Assembly (NCBI GenBank): GCA_965219325.1
Contig: OZ244723.1
Coordinates: 1,503,628 to 1,567,627 of the forward strand
Source: Dehalococcoidia bacterium
GTDB taxonomy: Bacteria; Chloroflexota; Dehalococcoidia; Lucifugimonadales; UBA2962
Direction: 5' to 3'
Length of the DNA: 64,000 nt
How positions within the stretch are numbered: the first letter of the stretch is position 1; each line of letters opens with the position of its first letter. Made by a program: the position numbers and the translations under genes. The notes under the pieces are model-generated. The model was not told where the DNA came from, did not search any database, and saw only the letters and a program-made list of their open reading frames with translations. Shown here in pieces: positions 33,308 through 62,330 of the stretch.

Positions 33308-34222
33308 TTGGATATCGTTGGCAAAAGGGGCTGGCTCTTTCTCATATCGGCGATTCTGCTCGTCCCGGGGATTGTGTTTTTGATCATGGCCCCCGGCCTG
33401 CGGCCGGGCATCGACTTTACCGGCGGCAGCACCATCACCATAGAGTTCGCCGATCCGGTCGGGCAGCAGGAGTTGCGCAACGCCCTCGCCGACCTCCAAG
33501 TCGACGACGCCACGGTCCAGAACTTCGGCGACAACGTCTACTTCATCCGCACCAAGGAGCTCTCAGAGCAGGACAAGGAAGATCTGACCGGGGACCTTGA
33601 GACCGCCGTCTCACCCGGCGGCTCGAACGTCCTGGCGTTCGACCTGGTGTCCCCCGTCGTGGCCCAGGAGACCGTGTTAGCGGCCTTCTGGGCGGTATTT
33701 GCCGCCGCGATCGGCATATTCCTCTACGTGTGGTGGGCCTTTCGCAACGTCCCCAGCCCGTTCAGGTACGGCGCCGCCGCGATAGTGGCCCTCATACACG
33801 ACGCGGGCGTGATCCTCGGCATATTCGCCATCCTCGGCGTTGTCGCCGATGTCGAGGTGAACACGATGTTCCTGATCGCGCTCCTGACGGTGATCGGCTT
33901 CAGCGTAAACGACACCATCGTCGTGTTCGACAGGCTCAGGGAGAACATAGTCGCCGCCCCGACCAGGAGCCTTACGGCCAACATCAATCTGTCCATCTCC
34001 GAGACCCTGGGCCGGTCCGTGAACACCAGCATGACGCTGCTGTTCACGCTGCTGGCGCTGATGCTCTTCGGCGGGCCCACCCTCAGGGCCTTTCTCCTGG
34101 TGCTGCTGATCGGCGTCCTGGTCGGCACCTACAGCTCGATAGCCGTCGCCACCCAGACCCTCGCCGTCTGGGAGCAGAGGGACATCCCACGGCTGTACAG
34201 GCGCCTGAGGGGTCGCGCCTAG
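33308..34222 (+). CDS. secF: Protein translocase subunit SecF
   Basis: GIDFTGG, ALIHD, GFSVNDTIVVFDRLREN and GTYSS. Confidence 0.95.
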   Translation: MDIVGKRGWLFLISAILLVPGIVFLIMAPGLRPGIDFTGGSTITIEFADPVGQQELRNALADLQVDDATVQNFGDNVYFIRTKELSEQDKEDLTGDLETAVSPGGSNVLAFDLVSPVVAQETVLAAFWAVFAAAIGIFLYVWWAFRNVPSPFRYGAAAIVALIHDAGVILGIFAILGVVADVEVNTMFLIALLTVIGFSVNDTIVVFDRLRENIVAAPTRSLTANINLSISETLGRSVNTSMTLLFTLLALMLFGGPTLRAFLLVLLIGVLVGTYSSIAVATQTLAVWEQRDIPRLYRRLRGRA

Positions 34223-35100
34223 GGGTTCTCCACCCGGGAGGCGATGCCCTCCACCGTGGTCCACAGGTCCCTGGACTCATCGAGCGTTTCCGGTGTCTCG
34301 TCCGCGAAGGCGCTCCGTCCAACGAGCCTGTAGACGTCGGCCGCCGCGCCGTGAAAGCCGGGCGGCAGGCCCGCCGACTCGAAGGTCGCTGCGATCTCCT
34401 CCATCTCCCCGACCCAGCGCCGGGCCTTGACCGGCAGGGCCGGGACCTCGCCTCGCATGCGCTCGAGCCCGGCCGACTGGCTCTCGGCAAGCTCTCGGTC
34501 CAGCTCCGCGGCCACCCCCAACCGGATGGCCATCGTCAGCACGCCGACCGAGAGCGCGCTCGTTCCCTTGGTGAATCCGGCATAGCACATCTTGATCGCC
34601 GAGGCGGCTCCCGTGCGCGCGCCCATGTTCCTTACGACTATTCCCTGGCCGTCGAGACCGTCCATCAGGTGGGCGAAGGGGCCGCAGGTGTAAAAGCGCG
34701 GCGGAGAGCCCCTGCCGGGCGGCGGCCCGATTATCGAGGCGTCGATGTACCGGCTCCCAGCCTCCGCGATCGCCGACTCGATCCTGGCGCTGGTGGCCGG
34801 GGCGACCGCATTGCAGTCGGCGAACGTCACCGTGGCACCGGCGGCACTTGCGGCATGGGCGACCCTGCCGGCAAGCGGTTCGGCCTCCGACGGCACCAGG
34901 ATGGACAGGACCAGATCGGCCTGCTCCACCAGGTCCCGGAGGCGGCCGACGTCGGTGATGCCCGCCTCCTCGCTCAGCCCGCGGGTTCGCTCGCTGCGGC
35001 CGGCAAGGCAGGTTATGACCCGGTGTCCTGCCGCGCCAAGCTCCCTTCCCACCGCGTGGCCCATGTCTCCCGGGCTGAGGATCGCTATGGTCTGCGGCAC
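34219..35100 (-). CDS. NAD(P)-dependent oxidoreductase, 6PGDH/3-hydroxyisobutyrate dehydrogenase-like with DUF1932
   Basis: LSPGDMG, DCNAVAP, ASAIKMCYA and KARRWVGEMEEI. AAAGGAGG RBS. Confidence 0.85.
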   Translation of the reverse strand: MPQTIAILSPGDMGHAVGRELGAAGHRVITCLAGRSERTRGLSEEAGITDVGRLRDLVEQADLVLSILVPSEAEPLAGRVAHAASAAGATVTFADCNAVAPATSARIESAIAEAGSRYIDASIIGPPPGRGSPPRFYTCGPFAHLMDGLDGQGIVVRNMGARTGAASAIKMCYAGFTKGTSALSVGVLTMAIRLGVAAELDRELAESQSAGLERMRGEVPALPVKARRWVGEMEEIAATFESAGLPPGFHGAAADVYRLVGRSAFADETPETLDESRDLWTTVEGIASRVENP

Positions 35101-35168
35101 CGGGCGCCTCCTTTCCGCTGGGGTCTGTCGGGGCCTAGATTAGCGCGCATGTCCGTATAATCAAAGCC

Positions 35169-36078: not shown

Positions 36079-36804
36079 ATGAACCCGGATGGCGCCGATC
36101 TCACGTCGGCCGCCCCGATGGGGGGCACCCAGGACGGCGGCGTCATTCGTGCCGCGGTCCTGGGCGTCAACGACGGCCTGGTTTCCAACTTCAGCCTGGT
36201 CATGGGGGTCGCCGGCGGGGTCGACAACGCCGACTTCGTGGTCATCGCGGGCGTGGCCGGCCTGCTCGCCGGCGCCTTCTCGATGGCCGGCGGCGAGTAC
36301 GTCTCCATGCGTTCTCAGCGCGAGATATACGAGAACCAGATCCGCCTTGCCGAGCGCAGGCTCAACGAGCGGCCGGCCGACAATGCCGAGGAGATAGCCC
36401 TCATATACGAGGCCAAGGGCCTGCCGCGGGCGGAGGCCGCGAGCGTGGCCGGCCACATAATGGGCAACACCCGGCTGGCCCTCGACACCATCGCGCGCGA
36501 GCAGCTCGGCCTGAACCCGGACGACCTGGGCTCGCCCTGGGGGGCGGCCGCCAGCTCCTTCGTCTCGTTCTCCGCCGGGGCGGTGCTGCCCATCCTCCCG
36601 TACCTGGCCGGGGCGGGCGGCCTTGCGTTCATACTGAGCGCCATCGTCAGCGCCGCAGGGCTGCTCGTTGTCGGTGGCGCAGTGTCGGTGGCCTCGAGCC
36701 GGGGCGTGATCTGGGGCGGGCTCAGGATGCTGCTGATAGGGGGCGCCGCGGCCGCGGTGACATTCGGCATCGGCACGCTGATAGGGGTGGAGGTGCTCGG
36801 TTGA
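36079..36804 (+). CDS. VIT1/CCC1 family Fe2+/Mn2+ transporter
   Basis: RAAVLGVNDGLVSN, GAFSMAGGEYVS, an acidic cytosolic loop and SF..GAVLP.LPY. Confidence 0.92.
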   Translation: MNPDGADLTSAAPMGGTQDGGVIRAAVLGVNDGLVSNFSLVMGVAGGVDNADFVVIAGVAGLLAGAFSMAGGEYVSMRSQREIYENQIRLAERRLNERPADNAEEIALIYEAKGLPRAEAASVAGHIMGNTRLALDTIAREQLGLNPDDLGSPWGAAASSFVSFSAGAVLPILPYLAGAGGLAFILSAIVSAAGLLVVGGAVSVASSRGVIWGGLRMLLIGGAAAAVTFGIGTLIGVEVLG

Positions 36805-37619
36805 CCGCCTCGATGCCCACGCTCCCGGTGGTCGAGGACATGGAGGAGTGGGCGGAGCGTTTCGAGGGCCGCTGGCTTGACCATGTCAGACGCAACGTGC
36901 TCGGCATCCCGGGCGCAGAACCGGACTGGAGCCTCTACGAGGGCCCGAGGAACCAGACCGCTCCCGCCGGACGCGCCGTGCGCCTGTCCGAGTCCCGGCT
37001 GGTCCTGGTCTCGTCCTCAGGCGCCTCCCTGAGGTCGCGAGGCGAGCCGTTCGATGCCGAGAACGTGCTGGGCGATCCCACCCTGCGCCTCATCCCGACG
37101 AGTGCGCCCCTGTCCGACGTCAGGTTCGACCACACCCACTATGACCACGGTGCGGTTGCGGCAGACCCTCAGGTGCAGCTTCCGCTCCGCCACCTCGAGG
37201 GAATGGCGGCCGATGGGCGGATTGGAGAGCTGGCCGAAAACGTGGTCAGCTTCAGCGGCTACCAGCCGGACGTACGGGCCGTGGCCGATTTGGTCGCGCC
37301 CGGGGTGCTGGCCGCCGCGAGGGACTTAAAGGCGGATGCCGCCCTGCTGGTGCCGGCCTGACCGATCTGCTGTCAGTCCGTCGGACTGATCGCAAGGCTC
37401 CTTGAGCAGGAGGGCATCGCAACCACCTTAACGAGCGCCGTCCCGGGCATGACAAGGCGCACGGCGCCTCCCCGCGCGACCTTCACTCGGCTGAAGACGG
37501 GAAGCATGCTCGGCGCCCCCAACGAACGGGCCCAGCAGATGCGCGTCCTTTGGGCCACGCTCTCCCTGCTCGAGCGCGACGCGCCGCTTGCGCCCGTAAA
37601 GCTGGAGGAGACGTGCTGA
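36801..37619 (+). CDS. PrdB/GrdB-family (D-proline/glycine reductase selenoprotein B-like) protein with Sec encoded by TGA 37359..37361
   Basis: Before the TGA: LSESRLVLVSSSG, GDPTLRLIP, HTHYD, G.IGELA and DAALLVPA. After it the frame stays open for 85 codons: PICCQSVGLIARLLEQEGIAT...PPRA...LEETC. GGAGG RBS 7 nt before TTG 36801; alternative ATG at 36813. Confidence 0.88.
37368..37394 (+). promoter_or_regulatory. Candidate bacterial SECIS hairpin
   Basis: TCAGTCC (37373-79), loop GTC, GGACTGA (37383-89) form a perfect 7-bp stem, with lower pairs TGC/GCA. The G-starting loop begins 18 nt after the UGA. Confidence 0.7.
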
Positions 37620-38596
37620 CCGGCCTGGTCCTCTACCACGGAATCGACTCGGGTGCCGAGCTGGCCGGGTACGCGCGGGCGGCCGAGCAAGCGGGCTTCG
37701 ATTCGATCTGGGTCACGGAGCGATACTTTCACGAGGAGACGTTCTCCCTTCTCGGACATCTCGCCGCATCGACCGATCGGATGGCGCTGGGCGTGGGCGT
37801 GGTAAACCCCTTTACCCGCCATCCGGCGCTCCTTGCGATGGCCGCGGCGACCGTCGACCGGCTCAGCGGAGGGCGCATGGTACTGGGCCTGGGGCGCAGT
37901 GATGAGTGGTTGATCAGGGACCGGCTCGGGCTCTCCTACAACAGATCGCTGAGCGAGCTTGAGCGGGCGGCGGGAACGGTAAGGGCCCTGCTGTCGGGAC
38001 AATCGGTCCGCATCGCCGACGGCACCGACCCAATCCGCCTGGCGGTGCCGCCGGTCCAGTCTCCTCCGAGGATATATCTTGCGGCCATAGGGCCCAGGGC
38101 GCTGCGACTTGCCGGGGCAATCGCCGACGGGGTGATCCTCAACGCCTACAGCCCTGTGGGCTACGTAGAGTGGGCCGTCGGCCAGATCCGCCTCGCCGCC
38201 GAGGGAGCGGGCCGCGATCCGGACGAAGTGGAGATCGCCTGCATGATCGTCGTGCGGCTCACAGACGACCCGGGCCCGCTGATGCCCGGACTCAGGCGGC
38301 GAATCGCAAGGTTGCTGGCCGAACCCGGGATGGGCCGGCTGCTGCTGGGCCGCGCCGGCCTTGATACGGGTATCGCCGATTCGGTGACCACGCTGGATGC
38401 CGCAGGCGAGTCGGCGGAGGCGGCCGCCCTGGTCCCTGACGAGCTGGTCGGCCGCATGTACGTCATGGGGAGCGCCGGCGAGTGTCTCGGGCGGCTCGGT
38501 GAGTACAGGCGCGCCGGGGTCACCCACCCTCTACTGCTTCCCCGTCTGGAGGATCTCGGGAGGGTGACCCGCGAACTCGGCCCCGGGGTGGCCTAG
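37613..38596 (+). CDS. LLM-class flavin/F420-dependent oxidoreductase (Mer-like)
   Basis: AEQAGFDSIWVTE, GVVNPFTRHP, SGGRMVLGLG and AIGPRALRLAGAIADG. GTG 37613 follows GGAGGAG. Confidence 0.9.
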   Translation: MLTGLVLYHGIDSGAELAGYARAAEQAGFDSIWVTERYFHEETFSLLGHLAASTDRMALGVGVVNPFTRHPALLAMAAATVDRLSGGRMVLGLGRSDEWLIRDRLGLSYNRSLSELERAAGTVRALLSGQSVRIADGTDPIRLAVPPVQSPPRIYLAAIGPRALRLAGAIADGVILNAYSPVGYVEWAVGQIRLAAEGAGRDPDEVEIACMIVVRLTDDPGPLMPGLRRRIARLLAEPGMGRLLLGRAGLDTGIADSVTTLDAAGESAEAAALVPDELVGRMYVMGSAGECLGRLGEYRRAGVTHPLLLPRLEDLGRVTRELGPGVA

Positions 38597-40292: not shown

Positions 40293-41285
40293 CTACGACT
40301 TGCCCGGATCGGGCCGGGATCGCCCTACCATCTGCTCCTCGGAGAAGCGCTCCATGCGCTCTGTGACCTCGGATGCGGACTCTCCACGAAAGAGCACCTG
40401 GATCTGCCCCACGCCGGCCTCTTCGAACCGACCGATGTCCGAGGCCATGGCATCCGCGCCGCCGGTGAAGATCTGGCGCGAGCCGTCGGCCGCCAGCACC
40501 TTCCGGCCGGGGTCGAACATCATCTCGGCGTCCAGGATCACGTCCATGGCATCCGGGTCGCGTCCCTCCGCCTCCATGAGGTCGTGAAGGCGGGAGAGCG
40601 ACTCCCTCAGGCCGTCGACCGATCCGATCGCCGGGGGCCTGGGATGGGCGAACGGATACCACCCGTCGGCCAGCCTCGCGGCCCTGCGAAGGGCGGAGCC
40701 GCTCTCGCCTCCCATCCAGATGGGTGGGTGTGGCCTCTGGACAGGCTTGGGCAGAAAAGAGATGTTCGAGAAGCTGACCCAGTTCCCCGCGAACTCGGGA
40801 TGGTCCGCGGTCCAGAGCTCGACGAATGCGCGGAGGTACTCGTCGGTAACCGCCCCACGCCGCTCGAACGCGGGTGCGCCGAGTGCCTCGAACTCCTCCC
40901 TCATCCATCCCGCCCCGGCTCCCAGTATCAGCCGGCCCCTGGACAGGACGTCCATGGAGGCCAGGGCCTTTGCGGTGTGCACCGCGGGGCGGTACGGTAC
41001 CACCATGACCGAGGTGAGCAGTCTTATGCTCCGGGTGCGGGCGGCGACGAATGCCATCACCGTGAGCTGGTCAAGGTACTCGACGTCGGACGAGCCGAAC
41101 AGCGTTCCCGGGTACCGTCCCTTCTCGTTGTACGGATAGTCCGAGCTGATCGACCTTGGTATGACCACATGGTCGCTCACGGAGGCGAACTCAAAGCCGA
41201 GCTCCTCCCCCCGGCGCGCGATCAGCCCCATGGACTCCGGTCTGGCCAGTGGACCGCGCGTCGGCAAGGGGAACCCGAATTTCAT
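40293..41285 (-). CDS. LLM-class probable F420-dependent oxidoreductase (Rv2161c-like)
   Basis: SDHVVIP, TSVMVVPYR, GAGWMREEFEALG, PKPVQRPHPPIWMGG and DGWYP. Confidence 0.9.
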   Translation of the reverse strand: MKFGFPLPTRGPLARPESMGLIARRGEELGFEFASVSDHVVIPRSISSDYPYNEKGRYPGTLFGSSDVEYLDQLTVMAFVAARTRSIRLLTSVMVVPYRPAVHTAKALASMDVLSRGRLILGAGAGWMREEFEALGAPAFERRGAVTDEYLRAFVELWTADHPEFAGNWVSFSNISFLPKPVQRPHPPIWMGGESGSALRRAARLADGWYPFAHPRPPAIGSVDGLRESLSRLHDLMEAEGRDPDAMDVILDAEMMFDPGRKVLAADGSRQIFTGGADAMASDIGRFEEAGVGQIQVLFRGESASEVTERMERFSEEQMVGRSRPDPGKS

Positions 41286-42459: not shown

Positions 42460-43428
42460 CTATTCTCCCACCAGCGGCCGGACGTTCTCGGCGAACCGCT
42501 GCATCTGCTCAAGGGTGGCGTTTGGGGAGGCCGCGTCGACCTCGAAGCCGAACATCACGCATTTTGCCCCGCTCGCCTTGTAGGCCCGGATGTCGGAGGC
42601 AATCTGCTCGGCGCTCCCGGTGAACACCCGTCTTGCGCCGTCCCTGCCCGTGTGCTCCCGGCAGTCGTCGTAGATGTTGATGGCGAAGGAAATCTCGATC
42701 GTGTCCGGGTCGCGGCCCTCGCCCTCTGCGACCTGCCTCATCTGGGCCACTCCGCCTGCGAAGCGTTCTGCGGTATCGAGTGGATTGCGGGGGTTGTCGA
42801 TGATGGGGAACCAGGCGTCGCCGACCCTTGCCGTCCTGCGCAGCGCGGGCATGCTCTCGCCACCCACCCAGATGGGCGGATGAGGCCTCTGGAGCGGCTT
42901 GGGTTCGAATGCGATATCCGAGTAGGAGGCATATCTGCCGGCGTAGGACGGCTCTTGTTCCGTCCACAGGTTCTTAAAGATGCGTATGTACTCCTCTGTC
43001 ACCGAGCCCCTCTGCTCGTACGGCGGCCTGCCCAGCGCCTCGAACTCCTCTCGCATCCATCCCGCTCCGCAGCCCACTATCACGCGGCCGTCGGACAATA
43101 CGTCCGCGGTTGCCAGTATCTTCGCCGTCAGCACCGGGTCGCGGTAGGGTACGACCATAACCGAGGTGAGCAGCTTTACGGTCGACGTTCGGGAAGCTAG
43201 GAAGCTGAGCACGGTCAGCTGCTCAAGGTAGTCGCCCGTGTCCCCGAACTCGTTGAACTGGCCCGTGTCGGTGTACGGGTAGCGAGAATCTATGGAAAGG
43301 GGCATTACGACGTGGTCGTTTACCCACATCACCTCAAAGCCCAGCTTCTCTCCTGTCGCTGCAAGAACAGACAGGTTCTCCGGGTCTGCGAAGATGCCCT
43401 GGGCCAGTGCACCGAAAGCGTACTGCAT
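42460..43428 (-). CDS. LLM-class probable F420-dependent oxidoreductase (paralogue of 40293..41285)
   Basis: NDHVVMP, TSVMVVPYR, GAGWMREEFEALG and PKPLQRPHPPIWVGG. Confidence 0.9.
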   Translation of the reverse strand: MQYAFGALAQGIFADPENLSVLAATGEKLGFEVMWVNDHVVMPLSIDSRYPYTDTGQFNEFGDTGDYLEQLTVLSFLASRTSTVKLLTSVMVVPYRDPVLTAKILATADVLSDGRVIVGCGAGWMREEFEALGRPPYEQRGSVTEEYIRIFKNLWTEQEPSYAGRYASYSDIAFEPKPLQRPHPPIWVGGESMPALRRTARVGDAWFPIIDNPRNPLDTAERFAGGVAQMRQVAEGEGRDPDTIEISFAINIYDDCREHTGRDGARRVFTGSAEQIASDIRAYKASGAKCVMFGFEVDAASPNATLEQMQRFAENVRPLVGE

Positions 43429-43467: not shown

Positions 43468-44376
43468 CTAGTAGCTACGGAACCACTCCAGGGTCTCCCT
43501 GATCGCCTCCGCGTGCGGTGTGGTGGTGGCACCGAACGTGGCCTCGTACATGGAATGGTCCGACACGAACGGACTCTGAAACTGGTACAGCTTCTCCCGT
43601 CGGGCCCGCCGAACCTGCCCGCTCAATATCCCCATGAGCCGAAGGGAGGTCGACCCGAGCGTCCGGAGCCTGGGCATCTGGCCCGCCTCCCCGAAGGCCA
43701 TCGCCAAAAACTCCCTGGTCGAGATGGTCTCCGCGCTGGGAACGTGCCACGCTTTCCCGTCCGCCTTATCGCTGTCGCCGAGCGTGGCAAGCGCGCGGGC
43801 GAAGTCCCGGCTGTACGTGTAGGTGTGCTGCATGTCGGGGTCTCCCAGGACGGTGGCCGGCCGGCCTTCCAGGGCGGCCCGAAAGACCGCAGAGCCCATC
43901 ACCGAAACGATCACTCCGGGGCCGAACAGGTCCGACGACCTGCCGATTGCCGCTCTGACCTCGCCCCTTCGGTGGGCGGCGATCAGCCGCTGCTCCAGCT
44001 CCGCTCTCGTGCGGCCGGACTCCCGGTCGGCAAACTCGTAGCGGGTCCTCTCGGACATGGGCCCCGATGAGCACTCGTACATGGCCAGGCTGTCGGCCAG
44101 GACCAGCTTTGCTCCCTCCCTCGCGCAGGCCGACGTCACCGCGTGGTTGGTCGGCGGAAATGCGCAGTTGTAGACTACCGAAGCCCCGTTGCAGGCAGTC
44201 CTCGCGCCCTCCGAGACCGACACGTCGGCAATGACGACCTCAATGCCCTCGGGAGGGTCGTGGAACTGTGTTCTGGTGACCGACCGCACGCTGTTGCCGC
44301 GCCTCAGCAGCTCTTCTGCGAGCGCCCGGCCGACCGATCCGCTGCCCCCCAGAACGACATGAAGTTGCTCGCTCAC
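43468..44376 (-). CDS. NAD-dependent epimerase/dehydratase family (atypical SDR)
   Basis: VLGGSGSVG, RSSDLFGP, HTYTY and AWHVP. Confidence 0.85.
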   Translation of the reverse strand: MSEQLHVVLGGSGSVGRALAEELLRRGNSVRSVTRTQFHDPPEGIEVVIADVSVSEGARTACNGASVVYNCAFPPTNHAVTSACAREGAKLVLADSLAMYECSSGPMSERTRYEFADRESGRTRAELEQRLIAAHRRGEVRAAIGRSSDLFGPGVIVSVMGSAVFRAALEGRPATVLGDPDMQHTYTYSRDFARALATLGDSDKADGKAWHVPSAETISTREFLAMAFGEAGQMPRLRTLGSTSLRLMGILSGQVRRARREKLYQFQSPFVSDHSMYEATFGATTTPHAEAIRETLEWFRSY

Positions 44377-44459
44377 AAGTCCTCCGCGCGGGCGCAGCCG
44401 GCTCGTTCGGCCTTCCCGGAGCGCACCTTCCCAGCGCTGGCGCGTATCCTAGCAAAACT

Positions 44460-45035
44460 ATGTCCGGCGGAACCCGAAAGATCGCCGAACTCAGGCGCAT
44501 GGACACAGGAGACGGGGTGGTCCTGCGGCCGGTCCGTCTCTATCACGGCGAGGAGATCTATGCCGCCGTGATGGACAATCGGGACTCGCTGGCCCGGTGG
44601 CTGCCCTGGGTTGAGGGGGTGAAGGGCCTGCCCGATGTTAGGGAGTTCATACGCAGGTCGATGGCCGAGCAGGACCGCGGAATCGCGGTGCAACTCGGCG
44701 TTTGGACGAACGCCAGCTTCCTGGGAATGGTCGGCCTGCATAGCGTCGACTGGACGAACCGCCGTACCTCGATAGGCTACTGGCTCACCGAACACGGCCG
44801 GGGCAGGGGAGTGATGACCGCCTGCGCGCGGGCGCTCATCGACTTTGCGATCGATGACCTTGAGATCAACCGGGTGGAGATCAGGTGCGGGGTCGACAAC
44901 GTCTCCAGCCGGGCGATTGCCGAGCGGCTCGGCTTCAGGCTGGAGGGTACGGCGCGCCAGGACATGATCCTTAACGGACCCTACGTCGATCTTGTAATCT
45001 ATGCGGTGCTCGCCCGCGAGTGGCGGCGCGGATAG
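44460..45035 (+). CDS. GNAT acetyltransferase, RimJ/RimL family
   Basis: WLPW, IGYWL....GRGVMT and N..SRAIAERLGF..EG..R. Confidence 0.9.
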   Translation: MSGGTRKIAELRRMDTGDGVVLRPVRLYHGEEIYAAVMDNRDSLARWLPWVEGVKGLPDVREFIRRSMAEQDRGIAVQLGVWTNASFLGMVGLHSVDWTNRRTSIGYWLTEHGRGRGVMTACARALIDFAIDDLEINRVEIRCGVDNVSSRAIAERLGFRLEGTARQDMILNGPYVDLVIYAVLAREWRRG

Positions 45036-45075
45036 GCTCAGGGGGGAAGCGCTTTGGGGCGAGAGGGAGGCTATC

Positions 45076-46272
45076 GTGAGGCGTCTACTTATCCTGGCCG
45101 CAATCCTTGGGCTCGCCGCGCTAATGGCCGGCTGCGGCGGGGATGAGCCCGCCGCACCAACCTCCCCGGCGGAGGAAGCGGCAGCGGCACCGTCCGGAGA
45201 GGACTCCGGCACCGAGGCCGCCCCGGAGCCCGAGCCCGAGAGTTCGGCTCCCATAGGCTCGTTTACCGAGGGCGGGCGCATGACCGACGCCCGCATGGAC
45301 CACGTCACCGTTCTCCTGGGTAACGGCCGCATCCTGACCGTTGGCGGACGCGGGCGCGGTGCGACGATCCGTCCTCCCAGGCTGGAGAGGGCCGAGGTTT
45401 ACGATCCGGCAACGGGTGAGTGGACCTCGGTGGGGGAGATGTCCGCAAAGCGTGAGGTGTTCTGCGGGGTCGCCCTCAGCGACGGCCGGGGGATGATATT
45501 CGGGGGCGCCGACGAACGCAGGGAGGCGCTCAAGACCACAGAGATCCTGGACCCGGCGACGGGCGAGTGGACGCTGGGACCGAAAATGAACAAGAAAAGG
45601 TGGAAGCACTCGTGCCTGCTGCTCAGTGACGGCCGCGTAATGATCGCCTCTGGAAGCGACATAGGCTTCCAGGAGGAGGTGGACATCTTCGATCCTTCCA
45701 CCGGGGAGATCGAGGCCACCGGCGACATGGCCGAGGGGCGCGCGCGGTTCACGCTGACCGAGCTTCCGGACGGCCGCGTGCTTGCGGCCGGAGGCGGCAA
45801 GGACGAGGGCCCATACATAGCCAGCGTCGAGATTTGGGACCCTGAGACCGGGGAATGGTCGGCGGCGGCCCCCATGAGCGCGGAACGCGCCTCGCACACC
45901 GCCACGCTCCTGGGCGACGGCACGGTGCTCGTGGTGGGCGGCCGGGGCCGGCTGGCGACAGCCGAGATATACGACCCGGAGGCCGATACCTGGACCGCCG
46001 CCGCCGGACTGACGGAGGGTCGCACCGATCACACCGCCAGCCTGCTGGCCGACGGCCGCGTTCTGATTGCGGGCGGGGTCAGCTCAATAGCCCTGTCGGA
46101 GATATACGATCCTTCTACCGGCCAGTGGACCGACGGCCCCTCGATGATGCAGGGGCGCCACCAGCACACCGCCACCACCATGGCCGACGGCCGCGTGATG
46201 ATGGTGGGCGGGCAGGCGCAGGACGGCGACCGCCGCGAGCTCAGCAACCTGCCGGAGATCTACGGACCCTAG
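45076..46272 (+). CDS. Kelch-repeat lipoprotein
   Basis: GTG 45076 after GGGAGG. Signal peptide MRRLLILAAILGLAALMAG-C, an acidic Pro/Ala linker, then about seven R..H....L.DGRVL..GG...E.YDP..G.W units. Confidence 0.85.
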   Translation: MRRLLILAAILGLAALMAGCGGDEPAAPTSPAEEAAAAPSGEDSGTEAAPEPEPESSAPIGSFTEGGRMTDARMDHVTVLLGNGRILTVGGRGRGATIRPPRLERAEVYDPATGEWTSVGEMSAKREVFCGVALSDGRGMIFGGADERREALKTTEILDPATGEWTLGPKMNKKRWKHSCLLLSDGRVMIASGSDIGFQEEVDIFDPSTGEIEATGDMAEGRARFTLTELPDGRVLAAGGGKDEGPYIASVEIWDPETGEWSAAAPMSAERASHTATLLGDGTVLVVGGRGRLATAEIYDPEADTWTAAAGLTEGRTDHTASLLADGRVLIAGGVSSIALSEIYDPSTGQWTDGPSMMQGRHQHTATTMADGRVMMVGGQAQDGDRRELSNLPEIYGP

Positions 46273-62140: not shown

Positions 62141-62230
62141 GGAGAGGTGGCAGAGTGGTCGAATGCGCTCCCCTGCTAAGGGAGTAGCCGGTGATGAGCT
62201 GGCTCGCGGGTTCGAATCCCGCCCTCTCCG
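62141..62230 (+). tRNA. tRNA-Ser(GCT); CCA end not encoded
   Basis: Acceptor GGAGAGG/CCTCTCC, anticodon arm CTCCC-CTGCTAA-GGGAG, long variable arm, T arm GCGGG-TTCGAAT-CCCGC, discriminator G followed by CCG. TAGAAT at 62126-62131. Confidence 0.96.
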
Positions 62231-62330
62231 CCGCCTAACCAGGACGGCCCTGCGCTCTCGCTGCCCAAGGACGCCGTCGGAACGTCGGGCATACGGCGGT
62301 GACTTAGAACCCTTCCAGGCAGGCAACCGG

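Follow-up and report, generated by a model that had tools for sequence, protein, structure and literature searches.

The window analysed here is a stretch of 64,000 nucleotides (nt) from contig OZ244723.1 of a Dehalococcoidia bacterium. At 36801–37619 on the forward strand it contains a gene with an in-frame TGA (UGA in the mRNA), which is very probably a genuine selenocysteine (Sec)-decoded gene encoding a single-domain, 272-residue selenoprotein of the PrdB/GrdB ("protein B") superfamily. The features of the locus, including a hairpin resembling a selenocysteine insertion sequence (SECIS), are as follows:

36801–37619, forward strand: complete selenoprotein coding sequence, 272 codons plus a terminal TGA, with a TTG start
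37359–37361, forward strand: in-frame UGA, predicted to be read as selenocysteine at residue 187, in the motif U-P-I-C with a putative resolving Cys190
37362–37616, forward strand: the 85 codons past the UGA, with predicted helices 188–203 and 243–258, predicted strands 207–212, 226–230 and 266–271, and R225 of a PPR motif
37369–37393, forward strand: SECIS-like hairpin with a stem of 2 + 8 bp and an apical loop GUC at 37380–37382, from a centroid fold and comparison
36789–36793, forward strand: Shine-Dalgarno-like GGAGG, read off the sequence 7 nt before the TTG, with a presumed role in initiation
36079–36804, forward strand: upstream VIT1-family (Fe/Mn transporter-like) gene (PF01988, 220.7 bits), ending with an ordinary TGA stop
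37613–38596, forward strand: downstream luciferase-like monooxygenase gene (PF00296, 207.6 bits)

A preliminary description, made from the letters alone, had noted that the open reading frame (ORF) stops at TGA 37359–37361, that the same frame runs on for 85 codons and that it ends overlapping the start of the next gene. This layout was confirmed: read from TTG 36801, the frame meets the TGA at codon 187, continues through 85 further open codons and ends at TGA 37617–37619, which overlaps the GTG (37613) of the monooxygenase gene. The TTG in turn overlaps the stop of the VIT1 gene (TTGA), and the VIT1 and selenoprotein genes are translationally coupled. We took TTG 36801 as the start because a start-capable first codon is kept in the orthologues L047, L048, L050 and L051 and orthologues do not retain the ATG at codon 5. 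The frame past the TGA reads PICCQSVGLIARLLEQEGIATT...PPRA...LEETC. With the TGA translated as U, the product is 272 residues long and contains ...DAALLVPA-U-P-I-C-C-QSVGLIARLLEQEGIATT...PPRA..., with ...LLVPA-U-PICCQSVGLIAR as the predicted Sec-spanning peptide. Since the local guanine-plus-cytosine (GC) content is 65–71%, 82 ORFs of at least 60 amino acids (aa) lie within 15 kb and the selenoprotein frame itself is open from 36042, the open frame past the TGA is, alone, weak evidence; homology and conservation carry it beyond chance.

The NCBIfam model TIGR04483 (PrdB) aligned across the TGA, with residues 61–258 corresponding to model positions 26–219 of 238 (94.3 bits, E value 7.6e-27). 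Taken separately, the 186-aa head matched model positions 26–143 (E value 2.4e-10) and the 85-aa tail matched positions 151–220 (E value 8.9e-10). Because the head ends at model position 143 and the tail begins at 151, the UGA falls where PrdB has its Sec (U151). A HMMER search without length limits returned 843 representatives at E values of 0.001 or less, 255 at 1e-10 or less and 13 at 1e-30 or less. The full-length close relatives have 259–290 aa, and anything longer, to a maximum of 514 aa, is confined to distant relatives of the Cys type. The tail is sometimes called alone in the databases, as in P0200 (81 aa) and P0223 (79 aa), which match residues 194–270 and would suit two separate genes, one for a 186-aa protein and one for a downstream protein of about 80 aa. 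That arrangement is extremely improbable, given that homologues with Cys, Ser or Gly in the Sec column are contiguous proteins of 259–290 aa, that the frame runs ungapped across the TGA in all loci and that the structural model forms a single domain.

Conservation of the UGA was followed at two scales. A six-frame search of the window's own genome and 60 related genomes gave matches in 30 of the 61; exactly one TGA was present in 46 of the 48 match rows, and the remaining two rows span residues 2–100 and 4–62 only, short of position 187. With tblastn, all 20 loci (L025–L044) showed a stop opposite query position 187 and Pro directly after it, and when each codon was checked it proved to be TGA in 21/21 loci, a paralogue from the own genome included. 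From 185,579 species genomes, a pattern scan then yielded 72 confirmed close-subfamily loci (35–90% identity, mostly over residues 7–272). Nearly all are from Chloroflexota, namely Dehalococcoidia (one SAR202 record included), Anaerolineae, Caldilineae, Chloroflexia and Ardenticatenaceae, with single records labelled Calditrichaeota, Acidobacteriota, Neomarinimicrobiota, Myxococcota, Lentisphaeria and others. The Sec column is TGA in 64 of these 72 loci, and spacing and frame across it are ungapped in all.

The other eight subfamily loci carry codons for Ser (TCC twice, TCA, AGC), Gly (GGG, GGC, GGT) or Arg (CGG). These loci (L082, L089, L091, L103, L106, L110, L113 and L118) have also lost the Pro next to that codon, along with most of the hairpin, and they may represent inactive or repurposed forms. 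A translation-table artefact was considered for the Gly and Ser residues and was refuted, the genome codons being real GGN, TCN and AGC. Cys occupies the Sec column in 58 of 269 database proteins, all of them distant (36% identity or less), so the expectation of U or C in homologues at this column was borne out, with TGA in the subfamily and Cys farther away. The preliminary description had also pointed to an extra Cys in UPICC at a place given as His in relatives. The extra Cys is present here and H is among the paralogue residues, but position 191 is not conserved: the subfamily has C, S, A, I, V or T there, and paralogues have H, N or T.

In a centroid fold of the 62 nt past the UGA, a hairpin occupies columns 11–35 counted from the U of the UGA, starting 10 nt after that U. 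A stem-loop with a conserved G in the apical loop, as part of a GU, is the rule for bacterial SECIS elements embodied in the bSECISearch model, and the hairpin of the window gene has this form. The stem-loop is placed immediately 3' of the UGA in the account of bacterial elements given in a review (PMC9312934). The hairpin was compared among 21 sequences, 20 of them distinct, giving 200 cells, against 500 shuffles. Standard pairs made up 88.0% of the cells, as opposed to 19.5–39.5% when the 3' partners were slid by 1–3 columns; the shuffles averaged 77.8%, and none of the 500 reached the observed value. The covariation score (0.317 vs 0.172) was likewise reached by 0/500 shuffles, and compensatory changes on both sides were seen at 5 of 10 pairs, a count reached by 15/500. 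In the same 21 sequences G in column 22 is invariant and T in column 23 is at least 90% conserved.

Over the 64 TGA loci a mean of 9.03 of 10 pairs was kept, with 9 or 10 pairs in 55 of them; the first loop base is G in 64/64 and the loop starts with GT (GU in the mRNA) in 61/64. The eight non-TGA loci keep 5–8 pairs, though they encode Q-S/T-V/A/I-G/A-L-like peptides, whereas in paralogues with another peptide (T-H-T-V-S-V) the same position is still occupied by a hairpin, though its sequence differs. These results indicate that the hairpin goes with the UGA and not with the protein sequence, since it has decayed where similar peptides lack the UGA and is retained where the peptide differs. 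A scan of 37300–37480 against Rfam, with E values up to 10, gave four chance-level matches and no SECIS family.

The tail past the UGA bears the marks of coding constraint. Compared with five orthologues, codons 188–272 showed 24–47 third-position and 0–16 second-position differences, and changed codons were synonymous in 20–31 cases and non-synonymous in 7–23, the same pattern as before the UGA. AlphaFold2, run on a 99-sequence alignment, predicted one compact domain (mean predicted local distance difference test score, pLDDT, 96.0; predicted template modelling score, pTM, 0.93), in which strand 180–184 is followed by Sec187 and helix 188–203, Sec thus lying at the helix N-terminus; helices 14–23 and 25–33 form the N-terminal part. 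In this model the last 85 residues supply core elements of the fold. D92, D122, P128 and R225 are invariant in the alignment, and the U/C187 column, C190, E202, G205 and P224 are nearly so. The flanking motifs that the preliminary description had given for PrdB and GrdB, after the Sec and at PR, agree with the alignment at E202, G205, P224 and R225. A wide VIA-align search gave a best Z of 8.8 (root-mean-square deviation 3.0 Å, 135 aligned residues) to LacI/periplasmic-binding and Rossmann-type alpha/beta folds, which, with the tool's stated background at Z 7–8, shows a generic three-layer alpha/beta arrangement only.

The way databases store such genes bears on a further explanation. Among the 120 matches listed, most are 173–186 aa long and cover 64–68% of the query; the closest named match is a 186-aa "hypothetical protein [Dehalococcoidia bacterium]", and other names are [quoted passage not shown] and "D-proline reductase (dithiol) PrdB". 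That automated pipelines mishandle such a gene, as had been anticipated, is seen in 160 of 269 database proteins, which end exactly at the Sec codon. If the TGA were a real stop, these would be true ends, and the window gene would be a pseudogene or encode a genuine 186-aa protein, the downstream frame being open through high GC content, under which long spurious ORFs are common. Extra in-frame stops in two relatives' copies could be read the same way. However, the TGA is kept in 64/72 species-level genomes while the flanks diverge to 40% identity, the tail has synonymous-biased substitution, its own PrdB homology and core strands and helices in the high-confidence model, and the co-varying hairpin comes after this codon in just those loci that have TGA; this explanation is accordingly very unlikely. 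The two copies are L032 (G002:C14), with a TAA and an apparent frame break, and L034, also recorded as L112 (G016, the SAR202 record), with a TAG; they are possibly pseudogenes or assembly errors.

The genome that holds the window is a single contig of 3.25 Mb, 96.7% complete, and the genome search proposed in the preliminary description for selA, selB, selD and tRNA-Sec found all four above their cut-offs. The tRNA-Sec scored 62 bits, above the Rfam cut-off (C1:2395421–2395514), and was called tRNA-SeC with anticodon tca by ARAGORN. Above the curated cut-offs were selA (523.9 bits, C1:2409616–2410947), selB (351.5 bits, C1:516787–518634), which lies away from the other sel genes, and selD (362.9 bits, G000:C1:2421791–2422711, forward strand, locus L020). 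The tRNA-Sec, selA and selD genes lie within about 27 kb. The selD gene has one in-frame TGA, and the selenophosphate synthetase here is probably also a selenoprotein.

A UGA might also be read through without Sec, for instance as Trp or Cys, by near-cognate decoding or an altered code, and Trp does stand at the Sec column of three database homologues, P0142, P0171 and P0238 (e.g. ...PVWPVC...). These may reflect gene calling under a table with TGA as Trp and not a Trp codon. Genome-wide reassignment of TGA is excluded because TGA ends the nearby AP_endonuc_2 gene, the VIT1 gene and the selenoprotein gene itself. The complete set of tRNA-Sec, selA, selB and selD, the hairpin with its loop G-U at the distance that SelB-dependent decoding needs, and Cys in the homologous column of 58 relatives also speak against such readthrough, to which we assign little probability.

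The central claim of the preliminary description, a 272-aa selenoprotein of the PrdB/GrdB family with a UxxC motif, thus stands on the conserved TGA, the co-varying hairpin, the Sec machinery and the homology on both sides of the UGA. Its narrower identification needs qualifying: the protein is a superfamily member and not a true PrdB or GrdB. The best family match is TIGR04483, some homologues were named "D-proline reductase (dithiol) PrdB" by JGI, and Sec-x-x-Cys stands at the homologous position, all of which would agree with a canonical D-proline reductase PrdB, or a GrdB-type subunit of glycine/sarcosine/betaine reductase, working with a pyruvoyl PrdA/GrdE partner. Yet the window gene reached 94.3 bits (88.6 bits in the genome search) against the PrdB equivalog cut-off of 300, and the GrdB/GrdF/GrdH models gave 15–26 bits against cut-offs of 602–800 (TIGR01917, 15.2 vs 602), with weak colinear matches over residues 101–214 (E values 3.4e-06 to 7.5e-03). 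PF09338, which covers PrdA, GrdE and relatives, had no match in the own genome, in a search that, as its positive control, picked up the family above the cut-off in 18/151 genomes from the class; it was also absent from four of five further genomes carrying the subfamily and in the fifth lies about 6.4 Mb from the subfamily gene. PF04723 (GrdA) had no match in the own genome either, in a search without a positive control, nothing being matched in any control genome. The gene has no prd or grd neighbour, VIT1 and luciferase-like monooxygenase genes flank it, and no neighbour is conserved across the 72 loci. A canonical PrdB or GrdB is hence highly improbable, and because the protein falls below both equivalog cut-offs and no PrdA, GrdE or GrdA was found, it does not count as a canonical subunit of either D-proline or glycine reductase. 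As homologues about 50% identical to it carry PF07355, it is a divergent relative of the PF07355 superfamily.

When 1589 flanking ORFs drawn from the 72 loci were clustered, no neighbour turned up in more than seven of these loci; the larger clusters are the selenoprotein gene itself and two with example ORFs antisense over it (39 and 30 loci). AP_endonuc_2 and VIT1 genes lie beside the selenoprotein gene in all nine loci of the genus (L025–L033) and in none of 11 other loci, and in 7/72 subfamily loci. A luciferase-like monooxygenase gene is adjacent in 5/20 loci, those of the closest relatives only, and in 4/72 subfamily loci. A family-wide functional link to VIT1 or the luciferase-like monooxygenase was rejected on these counts (7/72 and 4/72). 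Within 6 kb the window holds three luciferase-like monooxygenase genes, at 37613–38596 (forward strand), 40296–41285 (reverse strand) and 42463–43428 (reverse strand), accompanied by aldo/keto reductase, amidohydrolase and epimerase genes. Two long ORFs have no Pfam match: 33730–35160 (forward strand, 476 aa), which overlaps the end of the SecF gene and may not be a real gene given the high GC content, and 44376–45332 (reverse strand, 319 aa). The sole tRNA gene of the window is a tRNA-Ser (gct) at 62141–62232 (forward strand), which was also a sub-threshold match of the tRNA-Sec model in the genome search (37.9 bits, G000:C1:1565768–1565856).

The own-genome paralogue is a second PrdB-like selenoprotein gene (G000:C1:435419–436066, forward strand; locus L045:1417–2223), which likewise has an in-frame TGA (U-P-V-C-H) and a hairpin. 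At 171.9 bits it lies nearer the PrdB model, and its identity to the window gene is 34%; it adjoins a Creatinase_N/M24 peptidase gene and a VapB-like ORF. A search of the other 20 loci (L025–L044) did not turn up the M24 peptidase/creatinase-N gene.

Several points weigh against reading the gene as a partner-less, Sec-decoded member of the superfamily. The Pfam GRDB model (PF07355), which the preliminary description had expected to span the UGA together with PrdB models, stayed below threshold (16.6 vs 22 bits) over residues 110–155 only, so that this part of the expectation failed while TIGR04483 did span the UGA; TIGR01918 was also below its cut-off (17.1 vs 65.45 bits). The 62-nt fold is no more stable than its shuffles (z –0.69), and because this energy is not unusual, the support for a SECIS comes from the comparative data, in which the tested structure came from a member of the alignment itself and part of the stem encodes a conserved QSVGL peptide. 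Across the 72 subfamily loci no Cys codon was found at the Sec column, an unusual situation for a selenoprotein. A sequence search of PDB returned nothing below an E value of 0.27, leaving no solved structure to check the fold, and Foldseek gave no match against PDB at an E value of 0.001 or less. Finally, the absence of a partner is as seen by family searches and in flanks of ±4 kb only.

For the Sec-decoded gene the following course may be proposed. Translation would begin at TTG 36801, in coupling with the VIT1 gene that precedes it, and at UGA 37359 the hairpin at 37369–37393, with its conserved loop G-U, would act as a bacterial SECIS and recruit SelB carrying Sec-tRNA(Sec). From the sequence we infer that Sec is inserted at residue 187, upon which translation would proceed to UGA 37617. 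By analogy with PrdB, the selenol of Sec187 may serve as a nucleophile or redox centre, forming a selenenyl-sulfide with Cys190 that a thiol reductant would recycle. The protein presumably needs neither the pyruvoyl subunit PrdA/GrdE nor GrdA. The replacement of Sec by Ser, Gly or Arg but never by Cys in the subfamily fits a chemistry in which Cys is no substitute, and one may speculate that a small, charged substrate would match the acidic and basic residues that are invariant.

It is possible, though doubtful, that the clade represents a distinct, obligately Sec-dependent selenoenzyme with no pyruvoyl PrdA/GrdE partner, whose selenol cleaves a substrate with an intrinsically good leaving group. 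So delimited, the clade would comprise proteins of about 260–290 aa with a specific N-terminal two-helix extension, from Dehalococcoidia, Anaerolineae, Caldilineae, Chloroflexia and scattered other phyla. Were this true, the substrate might be, for example, a quaternary ammonium or sulfonium osmolyte, the reaction would be new to the protein-B superfamily, and selenium use would be widespread in aerobic Chloroflexota.

The gene itself will not surprise selenoprotein specialists. What it offers is, first, a correction to annotation: genes stored as 173–186-aa fragments or "hypothetical proteins" would in reality, judging from the sequence here, have a 272-aa selenoprotein as product. Second, it provides a well-supported natural control, in that the SECIS structure tracks the UGA. 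Third, it marks a Chloroflexota-wide PrdB-like clade without the partner that every characterised family member needs. Abundant marine PrdB-like genes are called "proline reductase" by name alone, and knowing what a partner-less member acts on would make a considerable share of microbial selenium use clearer.

In reviews, PrdB and GrdB are listed with the most widely distributed selenoproteins of bacteria (PMC9312934, PMC13188914), and BSepDB is described as holding Dehalococcoidia metagenome-assembled genomes with 46–49 selenoprotein genes (PMC13326102). With PrdB of Clostridium sticklandii and Clostridioides difficile (TIGR04483) the window protein shares homology over residues 61–258, a corresponding UxxC and a similar size (about 240–270 aa). 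Unlike PrdB, it is extended at the N-terminus by about 60 residues, with no prd operon and no PF09338 protein found in the genome; its host, unlike those of PrdB, is a Chloroflexota bacterium with a window rich in monooxygenase genes and not a Stickland fermenter. In C. difficile PrdB, Sec (U151) is described as attacking the substrate C-alpha and cycling through a selenenyl-sulfide, and the U151C variant as inactive (PMC11229817); this inactivity fits the absence of Cys forms in the subfamily. GrdB, GrdF and GrdH (PF07355, TIGR01917/TIGR01918, NF040794/NF040795), for which review tables list UxxC in the case of GrdB (PMC9312934), have about 430 aa, as against 272 here.

The closest counterpart by description is the "Proline reductase PrdB" family (UxxC, pfam07355), reported in 2005 as the third most abundant selenoprotein family of the Sargasso Sea, with 42 genes (PMC1088965), and in 2008 in GOS (Global Ocean Sampling) data with 235 Sec against 110 Cys forms (PMC2398784). 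In these surveys, D-proline reductase function is assigned by name only (PMC1088965, PMC2398784). No paper treating the window clade separately was found in the literature searched, survey supplements lying outside it. The marine family is of the same kind, with a pfam07355-related UxxC, in free-living marine or aquatic bacteria, and is usually truncated in databases; the window clade differs in its N-terminal extension, its mostly Chloroflexota membership and its lack of Cys forms, membership being compared here by description only. The kind of family is thus already known, and the window gene is a new, misannotated member of it.

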